From: Phyllosticta citribraziliensis
Lineage: Eukaryota
Direction of reading: 5' to 3'
Assembly: GCF_038025025.1 (NCBI RefSeq)
Contig: NW_027117345.1
Coordinates: 434,001-498,000, forward strand
Length of the DNA: 64,000 nt
In this document: positions 1 to 13,428 of the stretch, in pieces
Numbering within the stretch: the stretch's first letter is position 1
How the letters are laid out: every line of letters begins with the position of its first letter
Made by a program: the position numbers and the translations under genes
Notes under the pieces: model-generated
Databases searched by the model: none
What the model saw: only the letters and a program-made list of their open reading frames with translations
Told to the model about the DNA's origin: nothing

Positions 1-658
1 CTACCAGCTGGCCAAGGTCATGACGACACCCTGCGTCGTTCTCGTCACCTTTGTCATTTTCCGGACCACCGTCACCGCTTACAGGATTCTCGCCATTCTG
101 TGCATCTGCGCTGGAGTCATCTTGACCAACGGCGGCTCGGCCCAGAGCAACCCGTTTGGCGCAGTCATTGCCGTCATGGCCGTCACCGTCACCGCCTTCT
201 ATCAGATTTGGATCGGAAAGAAGATTGACGACTTGGACGTGACTCCGCAACAGCTTTTGATGAACCAAGCTCCCATTTCGGCTTTTCTGTTACTTTTCAT
301 TGTTCCTTTGATGGACAAGATTCCGGACTTTCGTAAGACTGCCAATTCTTTTTCTTTTCTTTCTTTTCTCTTTTCCCGTCGCCAGCCATACTAACCAAAA
401 CCAGGCACGATACCCTCTGAAGTTTACTGGTCCCTGCTCGCATCTGGCATGATGGCGAGCGTTCTGAATCTTTCGCAATTTCTCATCATTAGCCGCACTT
501 CGGCTCTCACTTTCAACGTCGTTGGAAACCTCAAGACCATCCTGATTCTATCGTTTGGGTGGTACGCCGAAGGCAGGATTCCCACGCAACAAGAAACCTT
601 TGGAGTCCTACTTGCCGTCGGAGGTGGGTGGCTCTACGGCCACCTGAAGCGCAAATGA
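1..658 (+). CDS. SLC35E/triose-phosphate-transporter-family nucleotide-sugar transporter, 3' part (5' end outside window)
   Basis: Hydrophobic ORFs 20..394 and 449..658 joined by intron 333..404 (GTAAGA...CTAAC...CAG); motifs YQLAKVMTTP, QLLMNQAP, TSALTFNVVGNLKT typical of the TPT/SLC35E family. Confidence 0.85.
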
Positions 659-1545: not shown

Positions 1546-2381
1546 ATGGCCGATGAAGACGCGGAAAATGTGCTCAGCACGCAGTGGCCAGCTCCTCCGC
1601 CTTTCTGGAAGCATTTTACGCCTGAAAACCGCGCACGACTGAAGGAGCTTCAGGAAGCCTCTCATGGCGAAGACACGCTGATGACGGGCTCTGAAGACGC
1701 CCACAAGACCAATGACTTGAAGCCATCGGACCTGCCGCCAGAACTGCGCTACCTGGTTCCGCCCGCACCGCCAGCCTCGGGAAAGTACCGCAGCTTTGGC
1801 GACCAGTATGATGTACGGAGCACGACCCGACCGCTGGGAGATTCTGGAATGCTAAGACGCCACAGATCAATGCCCAGCTGCCCTCGCTCAAGGACATGGG
1901 CATGGAGCAGCTGTACCCTTCACCCGCCGAGCCCATCTCGCCGTCCGGCACGACGACGTCGCAGCAGACGCTCGACCGCGCCTCGTACCTGAAGCGCATG
2001 ACGCAGTCGCTCCTGCTCAACTTTCTCGAATACGTCGGCCTGCTGAGCATCAATCCGTCCGAGTGGGCCAACAAATTCAAGGACCTGGACACGCTACTGG
2101 TCAACTGCCACAGCTTGATCAACGAATACCGCCCGCACCAGGCCCGGGCCAGCTTGATCATGATGATGGAGGACCAGCTCCGGCGAAAGCGGGAAGAGGT
2201 CGAGGGCGTCAAGAAGATGGGCGACAAGATTGAGGCCGTGTTGGCGGGCCTGGGAAAAGAAAGCGTCGACGTGGGCGAGGTGACGGAGGAGAACGGCGCA
2301 AGAGCTGACGCCGATGAGCTGAGGCGCAAGCAGCAGAGAGCCATCTTCCGCGCTCTGGACGGTGAGTTGGCCGTGGATTGA
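1546..2381 (+). CDS. MED7: Mediator complex subunit 7
   Basis: N-terminal WPAPPPFWKHFT and C-terminal HSLINEYRPHQAR motifs of Med7; intron 1813..1865 (GTACGG...CTAAG...CAG) joins ORFs 1546 and 1896 in frame. Confidence 0.92.
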
Positions 2382-3108: not shown

Positions 3109-5299
3109 CTACAACTTCGCCTTATCCTTTCTATGCCCTGTCCCCGTCTCCTCTCCAACCCCCGCCGCATTCTCAGCATCAACGACGCAAACCAGCCACC
3201 CCTCCGCAACCTCCTCGCCATCTTCAACATCCATAACCCACCGCACGCGGCCCGCAACCGCACAGCGCACCTCGATTTCCATCTTCATCTGCCGCACGAC
3301 CGCGACGACGTCGCCCGCCGCCACAGCGTCGCCTTCGTCGACGCACAGCTCGACCAGCGTCCCGGCGAGCGGCAGCGCAACGTGCGACGGATCGCGCGGG
3401 TCCGCTAGCGGGCGTGCCAACGCAGCCGCGGCGGCAGACGTGGACGATGCGGTCAGGGAGAGCGTGTACGGCGTCGGGCTGGTCGAGCCGGGAGACGTGA
3501 AGAGTATCTCGGCGGCCAGCGAGGCGGGGAAGTCGTTGCGCAGGATTCGCGTCAGTTCGAGGTGGTGTTTGCTGGGCGGCTCGTTCTGCTGGTCGAATGC
3601 TCCCTGCGGCGTGAGCGCAACGTCCCACGCGTCGCCCTTTCGGAAGAGCAATGTGGAGGCGCTGACGTTGGTCAGCGGCGCCGTTTCTGCTGTTGTAGTT
3701 GATGATGGCACTGCTGCGGTGGCCGAAGCCATCGCGCTCAGCCGCGCCGCCTCACGCGCTGCCAGCGCGGCCGTAATGCGTGCCCCCTCGGCGACAAGGC
3801 TCGCCTGCTGCGTCTCCAGCCACTGCGTCGAGCAGAGCCCGGCCGCAAAGTCGCTGTGCGACACGACGGCGCGCAGGAGGCTCAGGTTCGTCTTGACGCC
3901 CTCGATGCGCGTGTCGTCGAGGGCTCGCCGCGCCTTGCGCCGTGCCTCGTCCCGCGTTGGCGCCGTGACGACCAGTTTGGCCAGCAAGCTGTCGAAGTCT
4001 GGTGAGACTTTTGTGGCGTGCCCGGGGACTAGGTGCGTGTCTACTCTGACGCCGTTGCCGGATGGGAAGCGGAAGGAGGTGATGTTGCCGACTGATAGCG
4101 CCCAGCTGTTTTGTGGATCTTCGGCCGTGATGCGCAGTTGGATTGAGTGGAGGGGTGAGTTGGCCGGTATGTCTGAAAGCCCGCATGAGGCGAGGGAGGA
4201 GCCCTGAGCGAGGAGCAGTTGGGTTCTGACGAGGTCGATGTTGGATATGGATTCAGTGATGGTGTGCTCGACCTGCAGGCGTGGGTTAATTTCAAGAAAG
4301 AAAAACTCGCCGAGCTGAGGGTTCACGAGGAATTCAAAAGTCCCCAGAGAGAAGTATTTGACCTGGAGAAGTCAGCATGATGGATTAGAAGGAGCATCGG
4401 CTTATTCACCCTTTTCGCCATCTCAACGGCAGCTTCGATGACTTTGCCCACCAACCCCCTGTCCGGTATTGTGCTGGGCGCCACTTCGACCACTTTTTGG
4501 TACCGTCTCTGGATGCTGCATTCTCTCTCCCACACATGGCAGATATTTCCCTTTCCATCTCCCACAATCTGCACTTCGACGTGGCGGAACCCGTCAATGG
4601 CAGCTTTCTCGGCAAACACTTGCCGCGAGGGACTTTCCTCAATCGCACGCCTCGCAGCCTTTTCCAACTCTTCGGCACGCCTGATGAGACGAATGCCTCT
4701 CCCACCGCCTCCGTCGACGGCCTTGACCATAATCGGAAAGCCCACCTTCGAGGCAAAGGCTTCAATGTCGTCGACGCTGTTGGTTGGTCGGAGGAGTGCA
4801 GGACACACCGGCACCCGACCTACGCTTGTCAACTCGAACACGCAGTGTTTGAAAGAGAGGCCGTACATGCTTCAGCCAGCGCTCGCGCCTTCAGCTTGTC
4901 GCCCGTCGCTTCGAGAATCTCACTGCCCGGTCCGATCACCACGATGCTCGCTTCGTCCCACATGCGCCTCGCAAACTCGGCGCTCTCGCTGAGGAAGCCA
5001 TATCCAGGATGGATCGCGTCAATCTGATGCCTTCTGGCTATCTCTATGAGTTCGGAGACGTCGAGATAGGACGACACTGAAGACAGCTCGATTGCGTGGT
5101 CTGCTGCGAGCACGTGAGATGTGTCAGACGGCGTGAAGACGGCGTAGGTCTCTATGTCGAGTTCTCTTGCTGCGAAGAATATCCTGGTGGCAATCTCGCC
5201 TCTGCCGTCTAGTCAGTCGTCTGAGTTCCATACTTCGAGGACGCTTTTGGCTTGCCTGTTGCTGACTAGCAAACGTTTGATAGGACCGTGTTGGGCCAT
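3109..5299 (-). CDS. Biotin carboxylase plus biotinyl (BCCP) subunit of an acyl-CoA carboxylase; C-terminal AKL (PTS1)
   Basis: Spliced model MAQHGPIKRLLVSNRGEIA..., IHPGYGFLSE, KAVDGGGGRGIR, ERECSIQRRYQK, FLEINPRLQVEH, biotin site QMKM; three introns, first is GC-AG 5202..5255; no carboxyltransferase domain. Confidence 0.9.
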
Positions 5300-5561
5300 T
5301 TGGGAAAAGCAACAAATCTGTTCAACCCAGCTCTTGCAGTCTCTTTCCGTCGACCAACTTGCCAATGTTCGCTTTCAATGCCATTGTTTTGGGAAGAGAA
5401 AGATGAGAGGAAGTTGAGTGTCGGCAACAGCGACGTGGGGTAGCTCCAGGGACCGAGGCACTTCAACCCCCGCGCTCTTCAACTACGCGTCATTGCTCAA
5501 CCAGCACCATGTAGCGCAGAAGCAGCCGCTCCACCGGAGCATTCTCAATCACGGCTTCAAG
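5300..5561. promoter_or_regulatory. Bidirectional promoter (262 bp) shared by the two carboxylase subunits, with CCGAGG (FarA/FarB-type core) at 5453..5458
   Basis: ATGs at 5299 (-) and 5562 (+) face away from each other; CCGAGG is present but a single 6-mer could be chance. Confidence 0.55.
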
Positions 5562-7504
5562 ATGACGGGAAACGACGATGCCAGTGGTAAGCCGGCCGAA
5601 TCTGCGGCCTCGCGACGGCTTGCGCAAGTGTCATCACACGTCGCGCAAACGAACAGACTCCAAAACGACAACGCCAGTCCGCCCAGCTCTCCAGCATCGG
5701 AAGAAAAGCCAACGCGCCGCCGCCGCAAAGCGCGGAAGCAGTCGTCCCTCCCCGCCGACTACTCGGACGTCCTGTCCAATCTGGCTGCGCTGCGTGACAT
5801 GGCGTCGAAGCCGACGCACCGCGGCTACACGCGCCAGAAGCAAGCAGGCAAGCTCTGGGTGAGAGAACGCGTGGCCCAATTGCTTGATCCGGGGTCGTTC
5901 AGGGAGGTGGGCAGCGTGAGTGGGACTGTCGAGTGGAGGCAGGTCGACGGCGAGAGGGAAGAGCCCGTGAGCTTTGTGCCGAGCAATAATGTGCAGGGCT
6001 TTGGGTTGCTCGGTGGGAGGAAGGTCGTGCTTACGGCCGATGACTTTTCTCTCAGGGCTGGCCATGCTGATGGGGCTTTGGCGGCGAAGACGGTGAGTTT
6101 TCGTCAAGTTTTGCAGTCCAATTCTCCATTTCATCGCCGATCTTTTGTTCTCAACATTTTGGGTATATTGCTTTGCTGACACCTTCTAGTTGTACATGGA
6201 GAAGCTTGCGGTGGCTCTGCAGCTCCCCATGATCAAGCTCGTGGACGGCTCTTCAGGTGGCGGCTCTGTGACAACCATAATCGAAGAAGGATACTCCTAT
6301 GTTCCCCCAATGGTTGGCTTCGACTCGGTAGTTAAACAGCTCAATATGGGAATCCCGAACCTGGGTGCCGTTCTGGGCCCAGCAATTGGCCTAGGAGTAA
6401 TCATGTTACTCTCCCTTTATCGACTGTCCATGCTAACATTTGCAGGCTGCTCGTGTCACTGCGTGCCACTTTTCCGTCATGGCCGCAGACGTTGGATCTC
6501 TCTTTAATGCTGGGCCTAAGGTAGTAGCAAAAGCGACATTTGAAGAAGGCCTCAGTCCGCGTCAGTTGGGAGGTCCTGGCATGCACTGCACAAATGGCAC
6601 CATTGACAACCTTGCGGCGAACGAATCCGAATGCTTCGAGCAATTGCGTACCGTCCTCAGCTACCTCCCCTCCAGTGGAACCCAACTGCCTCCCGTAGCA
6701 GAATCCTCAGACCCCCTGAGCCGGCAAACGCCCTCTCTCCGCACTGCAATACCTCGCGTCCGCTCCCGCGCATACAACCCCTTGCCCATCATCACAACCC
6801 TCGTCGACGCTTCATCCTTTTTCCAAATCGGACAGCACTGGGGTCAGACTGCCATAACAGGCCTTGCACGGCTCGGCGGCCACCCAATCGGCATCCTCGC
6901 GCTGAACCCGCTCGTCAACAGCGGTGCCCTCGACGCCGCCGGATCGCAAAAGCTGACCCGACACCTCAAATTCTGCGACGTCTTCAACCTGCCCGTCGTC
7001 CAGCTCGTCGACGTACCTGGCTACGCGGTGGGCACGGCAGCCGAGCGCAGCGCAACCATGCGCCACGGCGTCGCGCTCGCAACGACGTACTACGCGACGA
7101 GCGTGCCCATCTTCTCGGTCCTCGTGCGCCGCGTGTACGGCGTCGCCGGCGCCGTCATGGTCGACAGCCGCGACCCGCACCACCGCGTGGTATGGCCCAG
7201 CGGCGAGTGGGGCAGCCTGCCGCTCGACGGCGGCATCGAGGTCGGCCATTCTCAGGAGCTGCGCGACGTGCTGGCTGCTCGTGGCCAGGAAGCTCGCGAT
7301 GCCCGCTATGCGGAGCTCGAGCAGCAGTATCGTCGCTTGATGAATCCTGTCCGCACGGCGAATGCGTTTGGTGTTGAGGAGATCATCGACCCTGCTGTCA
7401 CGCGGCAGGTCGTAGGTGAGTGGGTAAAGCACATGTATGAAGTGCTGTTGCCAGATAGGGTGCAGAGGAGGATGGTAGGGACATTGAGTCCAAGGTTTAC
7501 GTGA
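5562..7504 (+). CDS. Acyl-CoA carboxylase carboxyltransferase subunit with N-terminal PTS2-like motif
   Basis: Motifs GKLWVRERVAQLLDPGSF, ADDFSLRAG, LGGPGMHCTNG, LVDVPGY, WPSGEWGSLPLDGG, FGVEEIIDP; introns 6093..6189 and 6397..6445; RLAQVSSHV at 5616..5642. Confidence 0.9.
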
Positions 7505-8072
7505 AGAGTGTATTGTTTCGCAGAACTGCGCGGCGGGGACGGGTAAGAGAAGGATGGCCGTTTGGTTTCCTCCCTTTTCTTTACTTCAAATCTTTGTTTC
7601 CTTCAGCAAGATGGGTACTTCCTTGTCCACATTGTCCACATTCAAGTTTCCAAGGCACATACCTTTGATGATCACAGCGGCGCACTTGACATCTCTGCCC
7701 AAGTCTGCCTTTGGCTCCACAGTGGGCGTGGAAAGAACTGATGCCTCCTAGTACTGCGGCAATGTCTAGGGAGCATTCGTCTGCTGCCACCGTCACGCCC
7801 AGGGAGCTGTCGTTCGCAAGTGCAGCAAAGCCCAGAAATTAACACTTTTCCAGCGCCCGCGTCGGGTCGTGGAGAAAGGTGCCATGTCGCGCCTGCCTCA
7901 AATGATGGCCGCCGGCGCACACAGTGCGCATGTAAACAAACCCTCGACGCCAAAATTGCTCCCATCTTTCTTCATCGTCGGCCAACTCTTGCTTGCATCT
8001 CTCCACCCTCGACCCTTTTGCTTTGCAAGCACCCTCGTCGTTCGTTTCGTCTTTTAGCTCCATTGCATCACC

Positions 8073-9784
8073 ATGTCTCAAGGACGCCCCCAGCTTCCGG
8101 GCCGGGGTGCCGTCCTCTACGGCGTGGGCCCGTTTCTCCGCCGCCGCTCTGCCCCTGGTACTGATGCCGTCAATACTTCGACTCCAGCTGGTTCTTCTGG
8201 TTCTTCTGCTGCTCGTCCAATCTCTTCCAGCGAGAGCCATACCACAGCTTCCTCTGCTCAGCCAAGCGGTCACCGCCTCGCACCGCCGCCAACATCCGGT
8301 CTGACGCCACAGTCGCCGAGACAGAATTGTCGTCTTCCTGAAGAGAATCCAGACAAATGCATGATAGACACCAAGGGAATATTCGCGGGACAAGTCGATG
8401 CGTATAGACGAGTTGCGGAAAATGTTCAGTTGCTTCAGTCTTTTGCTGCTGAATTGAGCAATGGAGTTGATGAAGCCGACACACAGGTTGGTGAAAGACT
8501 CGCTACCCTTTGAAGTGCTTCTTGTTCGTCACCTGACACCTCTCCAAACAGGACCATGTAGGACCTGCTGGACCTAGCCAGCCCACGAATCCAAACACGG
8601 CAAATTTCCTCTTCAATCCAAGAACATCCACTACCCGCGCTCGGCGCGTGCGCCAGCAGTCTTCAGCTCCGCGTGAAACGTCTTACGGATGGGGTGTACA
8701 CAAGGACTTCGATGACTGTTCAAGGAGCGAGCAGAGGAAGAGACTGAGCGCGCTCAGGCATATTGCCGCATACTGGGAACTTGACAGCAGCACGAACGAC
8801 ATCCTTTCCGTATTGGAGGAGCTGCGTCCAACCGAGGCACTGGTTGACCACGGCAAAGGAGCTCATGAAAAGCCCACCATCGACGAGTATTTCGCCCGCC
8901 AATTTTACGAAAAGGACGACCGTGATTGTTCATCGGTCTACCTCGGACTCCTCGCCCGCTATTCGGAGCTGTTCTGTGGTGATCGTCGCAGTCATGGCCT
9001 CGATATCCTTCGCTATCATGCCAACATCCGCCAAATGCCAGACAGCGACCACCCTCTTTGGGACATCATGGAGCTAATTCGTGACGACATCTCCAGAGCT
9101 CTTGATCAGCCCTGCTTGGAGAAGATTCTCATTCACCCTTCGCAAAGGCTTGCGATGCGCTTGCAAAACATACGGGACGACGTGGCGATCATCGAACAAG
9201 AGGGAATAGAGGCGATGATGGCGGAACAGCGAACCCATAAAGACTCTCGAAAGCTGGAGTCGATGATGAGATTGCAGCAAAAGAAGCTAGCTAGACTCGT
9301 GCAGTCGCTGAGCAACCAGCTGTCTGTCCAGATGCAAAGGCTTCCGCCCCGCGAGGCAGCCACTCTTCAGGATCCGCGGGAGATCTCGATCGACATGTCT
9401 TTCTGCCGTCCGGGCCAGCCTCTTTCGTACAAGGTTGAATTCCCTGGCGAGGAATTCACTTACAATGGCATAATGCAAGGCAACCTTGCGCCCAACTTGC
9501 GCCCAACTTGTCTCAAAGTCGAGCTCTCCCAGTTGAAGAAACGTTGCAAGAATCAGCAGCGCACTGTCGACAACCATATGCGTCAAATCCATCAACGTGC
9601 GATGGCATGCGTTGGAGGCCGCCTCATCAACAAGAAGGCGCACACCCGAGCAATCAATGACTACGTCCACACCCACGCGAAGGAGGCCCGCCGCCTTCAT
9701 CGGGCCCTCCTCAAGTCAGCTCGCTTGAAAGCCTCTGTTCAGATGGTCAACTTCCACCTTCGCGCTCACAGCATGTCATTGTAA
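8073..9784 (+). CDS. Hypothetical protein (~548 aa), low-complexity N-terminus and coiled-coil-like C-terminal half
   Basis: ORFs 8073 and 8648 join in phase 0 through intron 8487..8551 (GTTGGT...CTGAC...CAG); no family motif recognised. Confidence 0.6.
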
Positions 9785-11530: not shown

Positions 11531-13428
11531 TTAGAAAGAGGGGGTCGCGGCGGGAGCAGCGCCAGACTGCGCGGCCTGGCCAGACTGACCCGACTGTTGG
11601 CCACCGAAGCCACCAGCGGCCGGGGTGTTCTGAGCAGACGAGCCTGAACCAGACTGCTGACCGCCGAATCCACCAGCGACAGGGGTGCCCTGAGGAGATG
11701 AGCCTGAACCAGACTGCTGGCCGCCGAACCCACCAGCGACAGGAGTGCCCTGAGGAGACGAAGCTGAGCCGGAACCGGAGCCAGACTGGCCACCGAAGCC
11801 GCCCTGCTCAGAGCCCGATTGCTGACCGCCGAAGCCGCCCTGCTCTGACGAGGAGCCAGATTGCTGGCCGCCAAAGCCGCCTTGAGTAGACGGAGTTCCC
11901 TGAGGCGACGAGCCGCCAAAGCTGCCGGATGGCGGCGTCCCCTGAGGGACGGAGCCGCTCATGACGGGCGTGCCCTGAGCTTGACGCTTCTCAAAGCTGG
12001 GAGTTCCGCTGGGCGGAGGCCCGCTCGGCGGGGTCCCTGACGGAGGCTGGCCGCTAGGAGGAGTCCCGGACGGCGGCGCGCCGCTCGGGATGCCGCTAGC
12101 TTGACGCTTCTGCTGGGCTGGAGGAGTTCCGCTGGGCGGAGGCCCGCTCGGCGGAGTTCCAGTCGGAATTTGACCTGATGGCGGAGTTCCGGACGGAGGC
12201 TGGCCGCCAAAGCTGCCGCCGTTTGCCCCCGGTGTGCCGATGGGCGCGAGACCGGACGCCTGCGCAGAAAAGGCCTGGGCGAATTGGTTGAGCTGCTCGG
12301 ATGAGAAGCCGCCGTTGGAGTTGGGCGTGGGGAACGCGCCAGCGCTGCCGACGGGCGTCATGGCACCGCCGCCGAATCCGCTGCCGCCGAATCCACTGCC
12401 CTGCGCGCCGGGAGTTGGGAACGATCCCGATTGACCACCGAAGCCGCCGGCACCAGGCGTGAAAGCGCCGCCGAAGCCGCTGCCACCCTGCTGGGCACCG
12501 GGGGTAGGGAATGAACCTCCAGCGCCAGGGGTCATGGCACCGCCAAATCCACCACCAACACCGCTGCCCTGCGCGCCGGGGGTGGGGAAAGAGCCTGACT
12601 GGCCGCCGAAGCCTTGACCAGAGCCAGATTCAGAGCCCGACTGGCCACTGAAGCCACCGGCGCCCGGAGTCTGTTGAGCAGAGCCCTCGCCGGCAGCAGG
12701 AGTTTGACGGCGGGCAAGGTCGGCCGCAGCAGCGGAAGTGGCCTGACCGTTTTGCGCGCCATTGCTGTCGGCAGCTCCGCTCGCGGCGGCAGAGGGTTGA
12801 GCACCGGTAGGCTTGGCTCCAGTAGGAGCGGCGCCGCTAGGCTGTTGCTGCGCGCCAGCATTCCCAGCTTGTGGAGTTCCCTGAGGAGCGTTGCCGCTAC
12901 CAGGCGTCTGAATGGGCTGAGGACCGTTGGCGCCAGGGGTGCCGAAAGGTTGAGGTCCGTTGGCGCCAGGGGTGCCAAAAGGTTGAGGTCCGTTCGCGCC
13001 AGGGGTGCCAAAAGGCTGCGGTCCGTTTGCGCCGGGCGTGGGGAAGCCGCCGGCAGGGGGCGTCGGGAACCCAGGAGGCGGAGTTCCGTTAAACCCTCCA
13101 GCTGGAGGCGTGGGAAACCCTCCTGCAGGAGGCGTGTGGAACCCTCCCGCGGGCGGAGTGCCGTGAAAACCGCCGTGGTGTTGACCTTGGCCACCAGCTT
13201 GAGGAGTGCCGATGGGCTGAGCGCCATTCGCAGCGGGAGTTCCGCTCGGGGCAGCCGGAGCACTGGCTTGGACGCTGCCAGCGGCGGCCTTGCTGTTGTT
13301 TGGCTGGACAGGAGCGCCGGCCACCAGGGCACTGCAAAGGGCCAGTCAGATACAGAGTCAGTTGGAGAGGGACGGAGATAGACTGACCTGGAGGCGCCAA
13401 GAGCAACGAGAGCAAGCTTGGAGTGCAT
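11531..13428 (-). CDS. Secreted Gly/Pro/Ser/Gln-rich repeat protein with dibasic (Kex2) sites
   Basis: Signal peptide MHSKLALVALGASSALVAG assembled across intron 13332..13387; repeats TPPAGGF, GTPGANGPQPF, PPSG(T/Q/P), GGFGGQQSGS; sites ARR|Q, QKR|Q, EKR|Q. Confidence 0.85.

Follow-up and report, generated by a model that had tools for sequence, protein, structure and literature searches.

The genome of Phyllosticta citribraziliensis encodes a fifth carboxylase besides ACC1 (acetyl-CoA carboxylase, ACC), pyruvate carboxylase (PC; PYC), methylcrotonyl-CoA carboxylase (MCC; MccA/MccB) and urea carboxylase. Its two subunit genes lie in the 64,000-nucleotide stretch of contig NW_027117345.1 analyzed here (positions 434,001 to 498,000; the window). 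A gene for a biotin carboxylase joined to a biotin carboxyl carrier protein (BC and BCCP; the alpha subunit) and a gene for a carboxyltransferase (CT; the beta subunit) stand head-to-head, 262 bp apart from start codon to start codon. Such a gene pair occurs in many filamentous fungi. Judged from terminal signals, promoter sites and their conservation, it is a conserved acyl-CoA carboxylase variant that is very probably peroxisomal and regulated by fatty acids. The narrower proposal, an ATP- and bicarbonate-dependent alpha/beta acyl-CoA carboxylase of the peroxisome under FarA and CreA control, appears likely on the same grounds. The customary list of fungal biotin carboxylases comprises ACC, PYC, MCC and urea carboxylase, and we know of no biotin-dependent carboxylase established in the peroxisomal matrix.

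A fifth carboxylase and its two subunits

Genome searches returned Biotin_carb_C matches in five genes and CT matches in three. The other carboxylases, named by us from their sequences, are ACC1 (a 2190-aa frame), pyruvate carboxylase, MccA, urea carboxylase and MccB. Because these account for the remaining matches, the pair comprises the sole BC and the sole CT without another partner. After the exons are joined, both frames are open, giving 680 aa for alpha (BC, an insertion, BCCP) and 598 aa for beta (CT), which rules out a pseudogene or artefact. In public contigs exactly five segments of the two genes are skipped, all bounded by intron ends, with 5/5 introns spliced in runs X1 and X4, 4/5 in X3 and 3/5 in X2; the 54-nt first intron of alpha has a skipping joint in two of the four runs. 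Run X4 stems from a related organism and X1 perhaps depends on the assembly. All four are presumed to be RNA, none being recorded as such, and their joints were used for gene structure alone. The closest named proteins are from Phyllosticta, with identities of 97.8% for alpha (P0121) and 96.5% for beta (P0001).

The domains expected of an acyl-CoA carboxylase are all there: a BC with intact ATP-grasp and catalytic residues, a BCCP with its MKM lysine, and a CT domain. Alpha matches the Pfam domains Biotin_carb_N, CPSase_L_D2, Biotin_carb_C and Biotin_lipoyl and contains the BC active-site motifs GDK, KAVDGGGGRG, RHVEVQ, GTFEF, EINPRLQVEH and QLRITAE. Both QMKM and the BC catalytic motifs are invariant across 55 alpha relatives.

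Targeting signals and the shared promoter

Terminal signals were counted in the best 120 of 5639 BC matches for alpha and the best 120 of 2454 CT matches for beta. Alpha ends in AKL. A strict type 1 peroxisomal targeting signal (PTS1; [SAC][KRH][LM]) closes 86 of the 120 BC relatives, or 61 of 69 after collapsing at 80% identity, and x[KR]L closes 120/120. The ends recovered were ARL (51), AKL (27), ERL (13), TRL (8), NRL (7), SKL (5), SRL (3) and others (6), in each case terminating a tail whose length varies among relatives. In the peroxisome proteome of a fungus, Pex5-dependent proteins preferentially end in AKL, SKL or ARL (PMC13343957). Among bacterial members of the clade to which beta belongs (see below), PTS1 ends were found in 0/78.

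Near its N-terminus, beta carries RLAQVSSHV, which resembles a type 2 signal (PTS2). The pattern R[LVI]x[QK]xxxH[ILVM] falls within the first 40 residues of 86 of the 95 CT relatives of at least 530 aa, in an N-terminus that is otherwise variable and unalignable. The canonical form, R[LVIQ]x5[HQ][LAF], is matched by 18 of the 95; the copy in the window ends in V, and those of the closely related P0001 and P0003 end in the canonical HL. In the CT model the region is a predicted helix (residues 15–31) within a low-confidence N-terminus. The Pex7-dependent thiolase signal of Histoplasma, RLSQVTSHL, is near-identical to RLAQVSSH[VIL] (PMC13343957), and the Table S5 legend of the same paper allows I in the PTS2 motif; the SidI nonapeptide RLQQTLSHL also resembles the beta motif (PMC3709128). 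The basic RRRRK run downstream may act as a nuclear signal, mark a processing site or contribute to import.

Both signals persist, in termini that otherwise vary, among Dothideomycetes and Leotiomycetes and in at least one Sordariomycete. Four further CT-clade proteins, eukaryotic or unnamed, P0260, P0279 (Diplonema japonicum), P0283 and P0244, end in AKL, AKL, CKL and SKM, respectively. Three of the four carry an N-terminal biotin-carrier-like MKM segment, and the PTS1-type proteins P0279, P0283 and P0260 are BCCP-CT fusions. The CT protein of the chytrid Synchytrium microbalum (P0248) lacks a PTS1-type end and has an unrelated N-terminal domain fused to it.

Gene order was followed in the best 80 metagenome loci of CT, of which 21 were too short and 59 informative. 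The BC gene stands head-to-head with CT in 42 of the 59, and no other arrangement was seen (0). Alpha and beta orthologues also have consecutive locus tags in five named species, and no conserved metabolic gene cluster was found beside the fungal pair. Automatic placement of the two start codons succeeded for 32 of these 42 loci; with the window added and near-duplicates removed, these gave 27 distinct intergenic regions of 253–516 bp.

CCTCGG/CCGAGG is the site of the fatty-acid regulators FarA and FarB (PMC5068947, PMC4117967). A lone CCGAGG in 262 bp is weak evidence, because 37 of 244 window tiles carry one. Across the orthologous regions the hexamer occurs in 27/27, against a mean of 3.7 and a maximum of 10 in 200 shuffles, and 133 of 718 natural 370-nt control tiles hold it. 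It also lies within 700 nt in all 17 unlinked CT loci (17/17; one, L166, is perhaps not fungal). Two sites of the window's promoter fit SYGGRG, the CreA consensus, and CCCCGC, a CreA-type site, is present in 22 of the 27 regions against 2.4 expected.

A sequence-only reading of the window had reported the pair's coordinates, its 262-bp spacing, the AKL end, RLAQVSSHV and CCGAGG, all of which were reproduced from the sequence. Its AKL proved to be a conserved PTS1, and both the hexamer and the head-to-head order recur in orthologues. The PTS2-like motif that it singled out holds as a conserved element, whereas the canonical ninth residue does not, L being found there in 18 relatives.

Ancestry of the subunits and comparison with known carboxylases

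On phylogenetic grounds, beta belongs to an uncharacterised, mostly bacterial clade of stand-alone CTs or BC-BCCP-CT single chains. A single-protein search of genome contigs with P0001 found nothing, and an alignment search recovered the relatives, which are 36–49% identical to beta (stand-alone CTs, 43–49%). Among the best 80 bacterial CT loci, 69 encode fused BC-(BCCP)-CT, seven are stand-alone with BC absent from the flanks examined, and four end at contig edges. In a quick IQ-TREE analysis of 37 rows, the bacterial relatives and the fungal CTs formed one clade (Shimodaira–Hasegawa-like approximate likelihood ratio test, SH-aLRT, 100), apart from long-chain acyl-CoA carboxylase (LCC), propionyl-CoA carboxylase (PCC) and the lineage of MCC and geranyl-CoA carboxylase (GCC). 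The rows were picked from a 105-row FastTree set with verified anchors, L191 for LCC (1072 bits to 4rcn) and L294/L300 for the MCC/GCC lineage, the GCC label being usable only at the level of that lineage. Approximately unbiased (AU) tests rejected placement of beta in the LCC clade (p 2e-9), in the PCC-beta clade (p 1e-6, anchor verified) and in the MCC/GCC lineage as a paralogue of MccA/MccB (p 4e-6), MccB proper being encoded elsewhere in the genome. GCC membership (AtuC/AtuF) was likewise rejected, as beta falls outside the MCC/GCC lineage and AtuA is unlinked to the pair; an LCC architecture of the 4rcn type does not apply to two divergent genes.

Beta was also compared with the PDB by profile search. 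The ten best chains score 247–264 bits and are PCC, ACC-beta, transcarboxylase and decarboxylase-type chains, headed by an acetyl-CoA carboxylase beta chain (7w5u) level with PCC chains; LCC (4rcn) scores 154 bits and MCC/GCC chains 119–157 bits (5ikl, 137). No solved structure was found for any member of the CT clade, whose best PDB match reaches 277 bits. Beta contains WPSGEWGSLPLDGG at residue 496 and FGVEEIIDP at residue 554, and the DSGGARIQE and GGAYD motifs of PCC are replaced by DGSSGGGSV and GVAGA.

Bacteria with the DGSSGGGSV-type CT include Acidimicrobiia, Mesobacillus, Streptomyces, Binatia and marine Gammaproteobacteria. Their proteins have R[AG]GH[AS]D, GGGSV, G[LI]GAA[RK] and WPS..WGSLP in common with the fungal CT; they occur alone or as fusions and carry no PTS signals. 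The neighbouring genes vary (acyl-CoA ligases, dehydrogenases, hydratases, monooxygenases), and no conserved metabolic cluster was found around them. One Mesobacillus locus (L310/L305, G002:C56) has two different CT genes in tandem, with an ATP-grasp acyl-CoA ligase-like gene upstream and a BC gene downstream, and another member of the clade, L015, has two AMP-binding ligases and a sodium:solute symporter as neighbours.

The ancestry of alpha is less sharply drawn. The best pairwise scores of its BC domain are to pyruvate carboxylases, and the linker before BCCP (HRRGNPSDPSHV) matches a PC segment (RVKGNRENPNHI). In a quick 34-row tree, the BC falls within the BCs of single-chain carboxylases (SH-aLRT 99) and outside PCC and MCC alpha, with PC as sister clade and a long fungal stem branch; a PC origin was not rejected (AU p 0.21). 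Alpha itself is not a pyruvate carboxylase, having 680 aa against about 1150 and no TIM-barrel CT domain by Pfam. An ESM Atlas cluster of alpha-like proteins consists for the most part of Basidiomycota.

About 190 residues separate the BC from the biotin lysine in alpha, compared with 88–110 in single chains and 685 in PC, so that the insertion is ~80–100 aa longer than in LCC and the fused relatives. The insertion is probably a BT/PT-like subunit-interaction domain, as the low-confidence alpha model, which aligns over its full length with the fold of PCC and MCC alpha chains, would suggest. Its language-model look-alikes are PCC_BT clusters (0.84–0.86), which we take as a lead only. Pfam listed no BT match, and in profile searches residues 450–575 did not significantly match the alignments of PC, LCC, fused chains or MCC-alpha. 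Identity with the PT domain of pyruvate carboxylase is unproven, because such profile matches are lacking and PC matched the linker plus BCCP alone.

Each of the known systems shares part of the design. The single-chain enzymes of M. avium (LCC, 4rcn) and Deinococcus (5fif/5h80) have the architecture typical of the bacterial relatives of beta, and in the quick tree the BC of alpha falls in their BC-BCCP-CT clade. The LCC C-domain loop of small residues and its WP[ST]GE[WF]G motif also resemble those of beta, but its CT lies in another clade, and it is encoded by one gene rather than two and lacks both the 80–100-aa insertion and the targeting signals. PCC, an alpha6beta6 enzyme (3n6r, 7ybu), has the same split into a BC/BT-like/BCCP alpha chain and a CT beta chain, and among solved structures CT chains of the PCC type come nearest to beta. 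It differs in its active-site motifs, its mutase partner and its mitochondrial rather than peroxisomal signals, and both subunits of the pair fall outside its clades. With MCC and GCC (MccA/MccB, AtuC/AtuF) the pair has the two-subunit layout and the catabolic context in common; their beta lineage is rejected, and the CT model, itself mediocre, fits their domain connectivity poorly. Pyruvate carboxylase resembles alpha in BC scores and linker, but has a TIM-barrel domain and its own gene in the genome, whereas alpha is paired with an acyl-CoA CT.

The sequence-only reading had set the pair apart from MccA/MccB, and the phylogeny against MCC, PCC, GCC and LCC bears this out, placing beta outside all these beta families. 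Its suggestion that the CT motifs look closer to single-chain long-chain enzymes than to MccB survives for the kinship (69/80 fused loci, and the BC tree) and fails for LCC membership. The related idea of a split single chain retains that kinship as well, although a simple split sits uneasily with the extra residues and the unrejected PC origin of the BC.

Proposed reaction, competing explanations and context

We propose that alpha would receive biotin and enter the peroxisome via Pex5 by virtue of its AKL end, and that beta would enter via Pex7 by virtue of its N-terminal nonapeptide. FarA/FarB would activate both genes from one promoter, and CreA would repress them on glucose. The subunits would co-assemble, to judge from PCC probably on a beta hexamer, with ATP supplied via a peroxisomal carrier (PMC3709128), and would carboxylate the alpha position of a saturated acyl-CoA from peroxisomal fatty-acid breakdown, yielding an alkylmalonyl-CoA. 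The substrate would be a chain, whether short, medium, branched or carboxylate-bearing, whose breakdown beta-oxidation is unable to complete. Alpha-carboxylation is the chemistry we favour within this proposal, at slightly less than an even chance, and it is more likely than an action like that of geranyl-CoA carboxylase. A classical propionate route is not implied, because the genome shows no methylmalonyl-CoA mutase (0 matches in an assembly of unstated completeness, with the control positive in 8 of 14 genomes). The absence is expected in fungi, which use the methylcitrate cycle instead (PMC12125574).

Enzymes that carboxylate the alpha position (PCC, ACC) differ in beta-subunit connectivity from those that carboxylate the gamma position (MCC, GCC) (PMC4673880). 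In the gamma lineage the N and C domains are swapped. The CT model superimposes on transcarboxylase 12S, 5fif and 4rcn with a root-mean-square deviation (rmsd) of 4.2–5.0 Å (Z 24–26, 428–470 residues aligned; alpha-lineage chains, 4–6 Å), and on GcdA and MCC-beta with 22 Å (Z 19–20, 407–440 aligned). The argument is only moderate, because the model has a mean predicted local distance difference test (pLDDT) score of 63. The C-domain loop RRVYGVAG is like RKGYGLG of LCC and RKAYGGAY of PCC and unlike GASAGAGNY of MCC. Small residues (Gly, Ala/Gly) occupy the positions of the PCC Tyr-Asp pocket, and a clade-specific Arg/Lys (Arg249) stands beside the N-domain oxyanion loop; His167 is likewise specific to the clade. 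By analogy with pocket residues reportedly probed by mutagenesis in Streptomyces PccB, we speculate on a roomier pocket or a carboxylate-bearing substrate.

Several observations weigh against the proposal. The CT model is mediocre, weak end variants (ERL, TRL, NRL and others) close 29 of the 120 BC relatives, and the ninth position of the 86 PTS2-like motifs is I in 39, V in 28, L in 18 and M in 1. Seven of the nine relatives missing the motif have Ala at position 2, one is truncated and one has no motif. No BC gene lies within at least 1.5 kb upstream of CT in 17 of the 59 informative fungal loci, and without methylmalonyl-CoA mutase an alkylmalonyl-CoA has no obvious fate. In A. nidulans, AN7764 ("propionyl-CoA carboxylase", orthology unconfirmed) changes less than twofold in six of six suberin microarray comparisons (PMC4117967). 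The accessible part of the Histoplasma peroxisome proteome lists nothing named carboxylase (PMC13343957; the pair's presence in Histoplasma is unchecked), and carboxylase terms have 0 matches in the accessible supplements of PMC13343957, PMC12316961 and PMC3237427. These negatives from peroxisomal lists carry little weight, since the pair can be masked by its labels, by strict motifs and by native biotinylation; the Histoplasma method captures natively biotinylated proteins whatever their compartment.

The strongest rival, which we hold to be rather unlikely, is a peroxisomal route like the Atu pathway, in which terpenoids, phytol or branched fatty acids would supply a 3-methyl-branched enoyl-CoA for gamma-carboxylation by the pair. 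A hydratase would then add water, and an AtuA-family lyase would take off acetate so that beta-oxidation resumes. This is the isoprenoid idea of the sequence-only reading, reached by convergence and not by descent from geranyl-CoA carboxylase. In Pseudomonas, AtuA is the lyase that acts after geranyl-CoA carboxylase. The genome has a single AtuA/DUF1446 gene on another contig (G000:C7, ~1174150–1176170, + strand; L402:6148–8175), with CCGAGG ~210 bp and CCTCGG ~150 bp upstream and a C-terminal GKL, which makes it a candidate for a FarA-regulated, possibly peroxisomal lyase. Its relatives end in G[KR][LI] in 97 of 120 cases, no separate GCC-like beta gene was found in the genome, and the product would have a fate. 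Yet beta is rejected from the MCC/GCC lineage and is closer to alpha-lineage folds, GKL is not a strict PTS1 (0/120 relatives have one) and is perhaps structural, and AtuA was absent from the other loci of the 403 searched with its profile, bacterial CT-clade loci included.

Two further explanations name a different substrate; we regard both as improbable, to a similar degree. A peroxisomal acetyl-CoA carboxylase would make malonyl-CoA from beta-oxidation acetyl-CoA for polyketide precursors or the pimelate moiety of biotin. The alpha-lineage features of beta and the rank of 7w5u, tied with PCC, agree with it, as does the peroxisomal location in fungi of BioF, the first committed enzyme of biotin synthesis (PMC13647351). 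FarA and CreA sites nevertheless suggest catabolism, the small pocket residues suggest (by the PccB analogy) a roomier pocket, and no biosynthetic genes are conserved beside the pair. A propionyl-CoA carboxylase, in the spirit of the database annotation, would instead remove toxic propionyl-CoA formed in odd-chain or branched beta-oxidation, and its methylmalonyl-CoA would be hydrolysed or would extend polyketides. The solved structures closest to beta include PCC-beta chains, and propionyl-CoA arises from odd-chain fatty acids in peroxisomes (PMC12125574), but placement in PCC-beta is rejected, the two PCC motifs are replaced, the mutase is missing in a kingdom with a methylcitrate cycle (PMC12125574), and the N-terminus of beta is PTS2-like rather than a mitochondrial presequence.

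Least probable is that the signals are real and the enzyme is mainly cytosolic or dual-located, or that the genes act apart with CT as a decarboxylase or transcarboxylase, which the mostly noncanonical ninth residue, the weak PTS1 variants of some species, the 17 unlinked CT loci and the 7/80 stand-alone bacterial loci would allow, but which sits poorly with the persistence of both signals in variable termini, the invariant BC motifs and biotin lysine, and the lack of any other orphan BC or CT partner in the genome.

We put at somewhat better than even the chance that filamentous fungi perform an undescribed CO2-fixing reaction in the peroxisome, with an enzyme from a CT clade lacking a characterised member that is built from one Pex5 and one Pex7 cargo, was sent independently to peroxisome-type organelles in other eukaryotes, diplonemids included, and is maybe linked to AtuA in a pathway that unblocks acyl-CoAs. 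The open-access literature, which leaves subscription papers uncovered, yielded no description of a peroxisomal fungal acyl-CoA carboxylase pair. A conserved fifth enzyme would mean that the known catabolism of fatty acids or plant lipids in fungi lacks a reaction and, if the link to AtuA is true, that eukaryotes may have a pathway for branched or plant-polymer-derived acyl-CoAs. The pair also makes a large bacterial CT clade accessible to study in a tractable eukaryote, and it lends itself to testing how two receptors import one heteromeric enzyme. Databases label its members mitochondrial propionyl-CoA carboxylase beta chain and pyruvate carboxylase, a misannotation that can insert a propionate route into fungal metabolic models without a mutase. 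Similar labels are attached to Paracoccidioides PAAG_02163 (PMC7712234) and Fusarium FGSG_08688 (PMC6804420), sequences unconfirmed, and to A. nidulans AN7764, AN11009, AN10656 and AN10665 (PMC4117967), family match unconfirmed; by annotation, A. nidulans apparently has more than one extra carboxylase pair.

Features of the carboxylase locus and its neighbours, in window coordinates
Feature	Position	Strand	Basis or remark
Alpha subunit gene (BC, probable BT-like domain, BCCP; 680 aa)	3109..5299	-	ATG 5299-5297, stop 3111-3109; Pfam, intron joints, open frame
Alpha exons	5299-5256, 5201-4867, 4819-4410, 4362-3109	-	intron joints in public contigs
Alpha intron 1, GC-AG type	5202..5255	-	ends GCAAGC...GCAG
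BC-to-BCCP insertion (~residues 450-585), with a helix and strands	3397..3804	-	
Biotin-accepting lysine Lys623 in QMKME	3283..3285	-	sequence; relatives
PTS1 tripeptide AKL (end ...RKDKAKL)	3112..3120	-	sequence, relatives
Shared divergent promoter, 262 bp	5300..5561	.	sequence
GTGGGG, second CreA-type site	5435-5440		sequence
CCGAGG, FarA/FarB (CTF1) core site	5453..5458	+	kept in 27/27 regions
GCGGGG, CreA-type SYGGRG site next to FarA site	5468..5473	-	orthologous regions
Beta subunit gene (carboxyltransferase, 598 aa)	5562..7504	+	ATG 5562, stop 7502-7504; Pfam Carboxyl_trans, intron joints, open frame
Beta exons	5562-6092, 6190-6396, 6446-7504	+	intron joints in public contigs
PTS2-like nonapeptide RLAQVSSHV, CT residues 19-27	5616..5642	+	sequence, relatives
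Basic cluster RRRRK downstream of PTS2-like motif	5715..5729	+	kept in most CT relatives
TPT/EamA-like nucleotide-sugar transporter gene, 3' end	1-658	+	
MED7 mediator subunit gene, two exons	1546-2381	+	
Multi-exon open reading frame (ORF)	8058-9784	+	no Pfam match at E 0.001

The flanking genes are unrelated to the pair, with MED7 and the TPT/EamA-like transporter to the left and the multi-exon ORF to the right. Farther along, at 11531–13345 on the minus strand, a repetitive frame of ~600 aa without a Pfam match is rich in Gly, Pro, Ser and Gln, begins like a signal peptide and has KRQ repeats similar to Kex2 sites.

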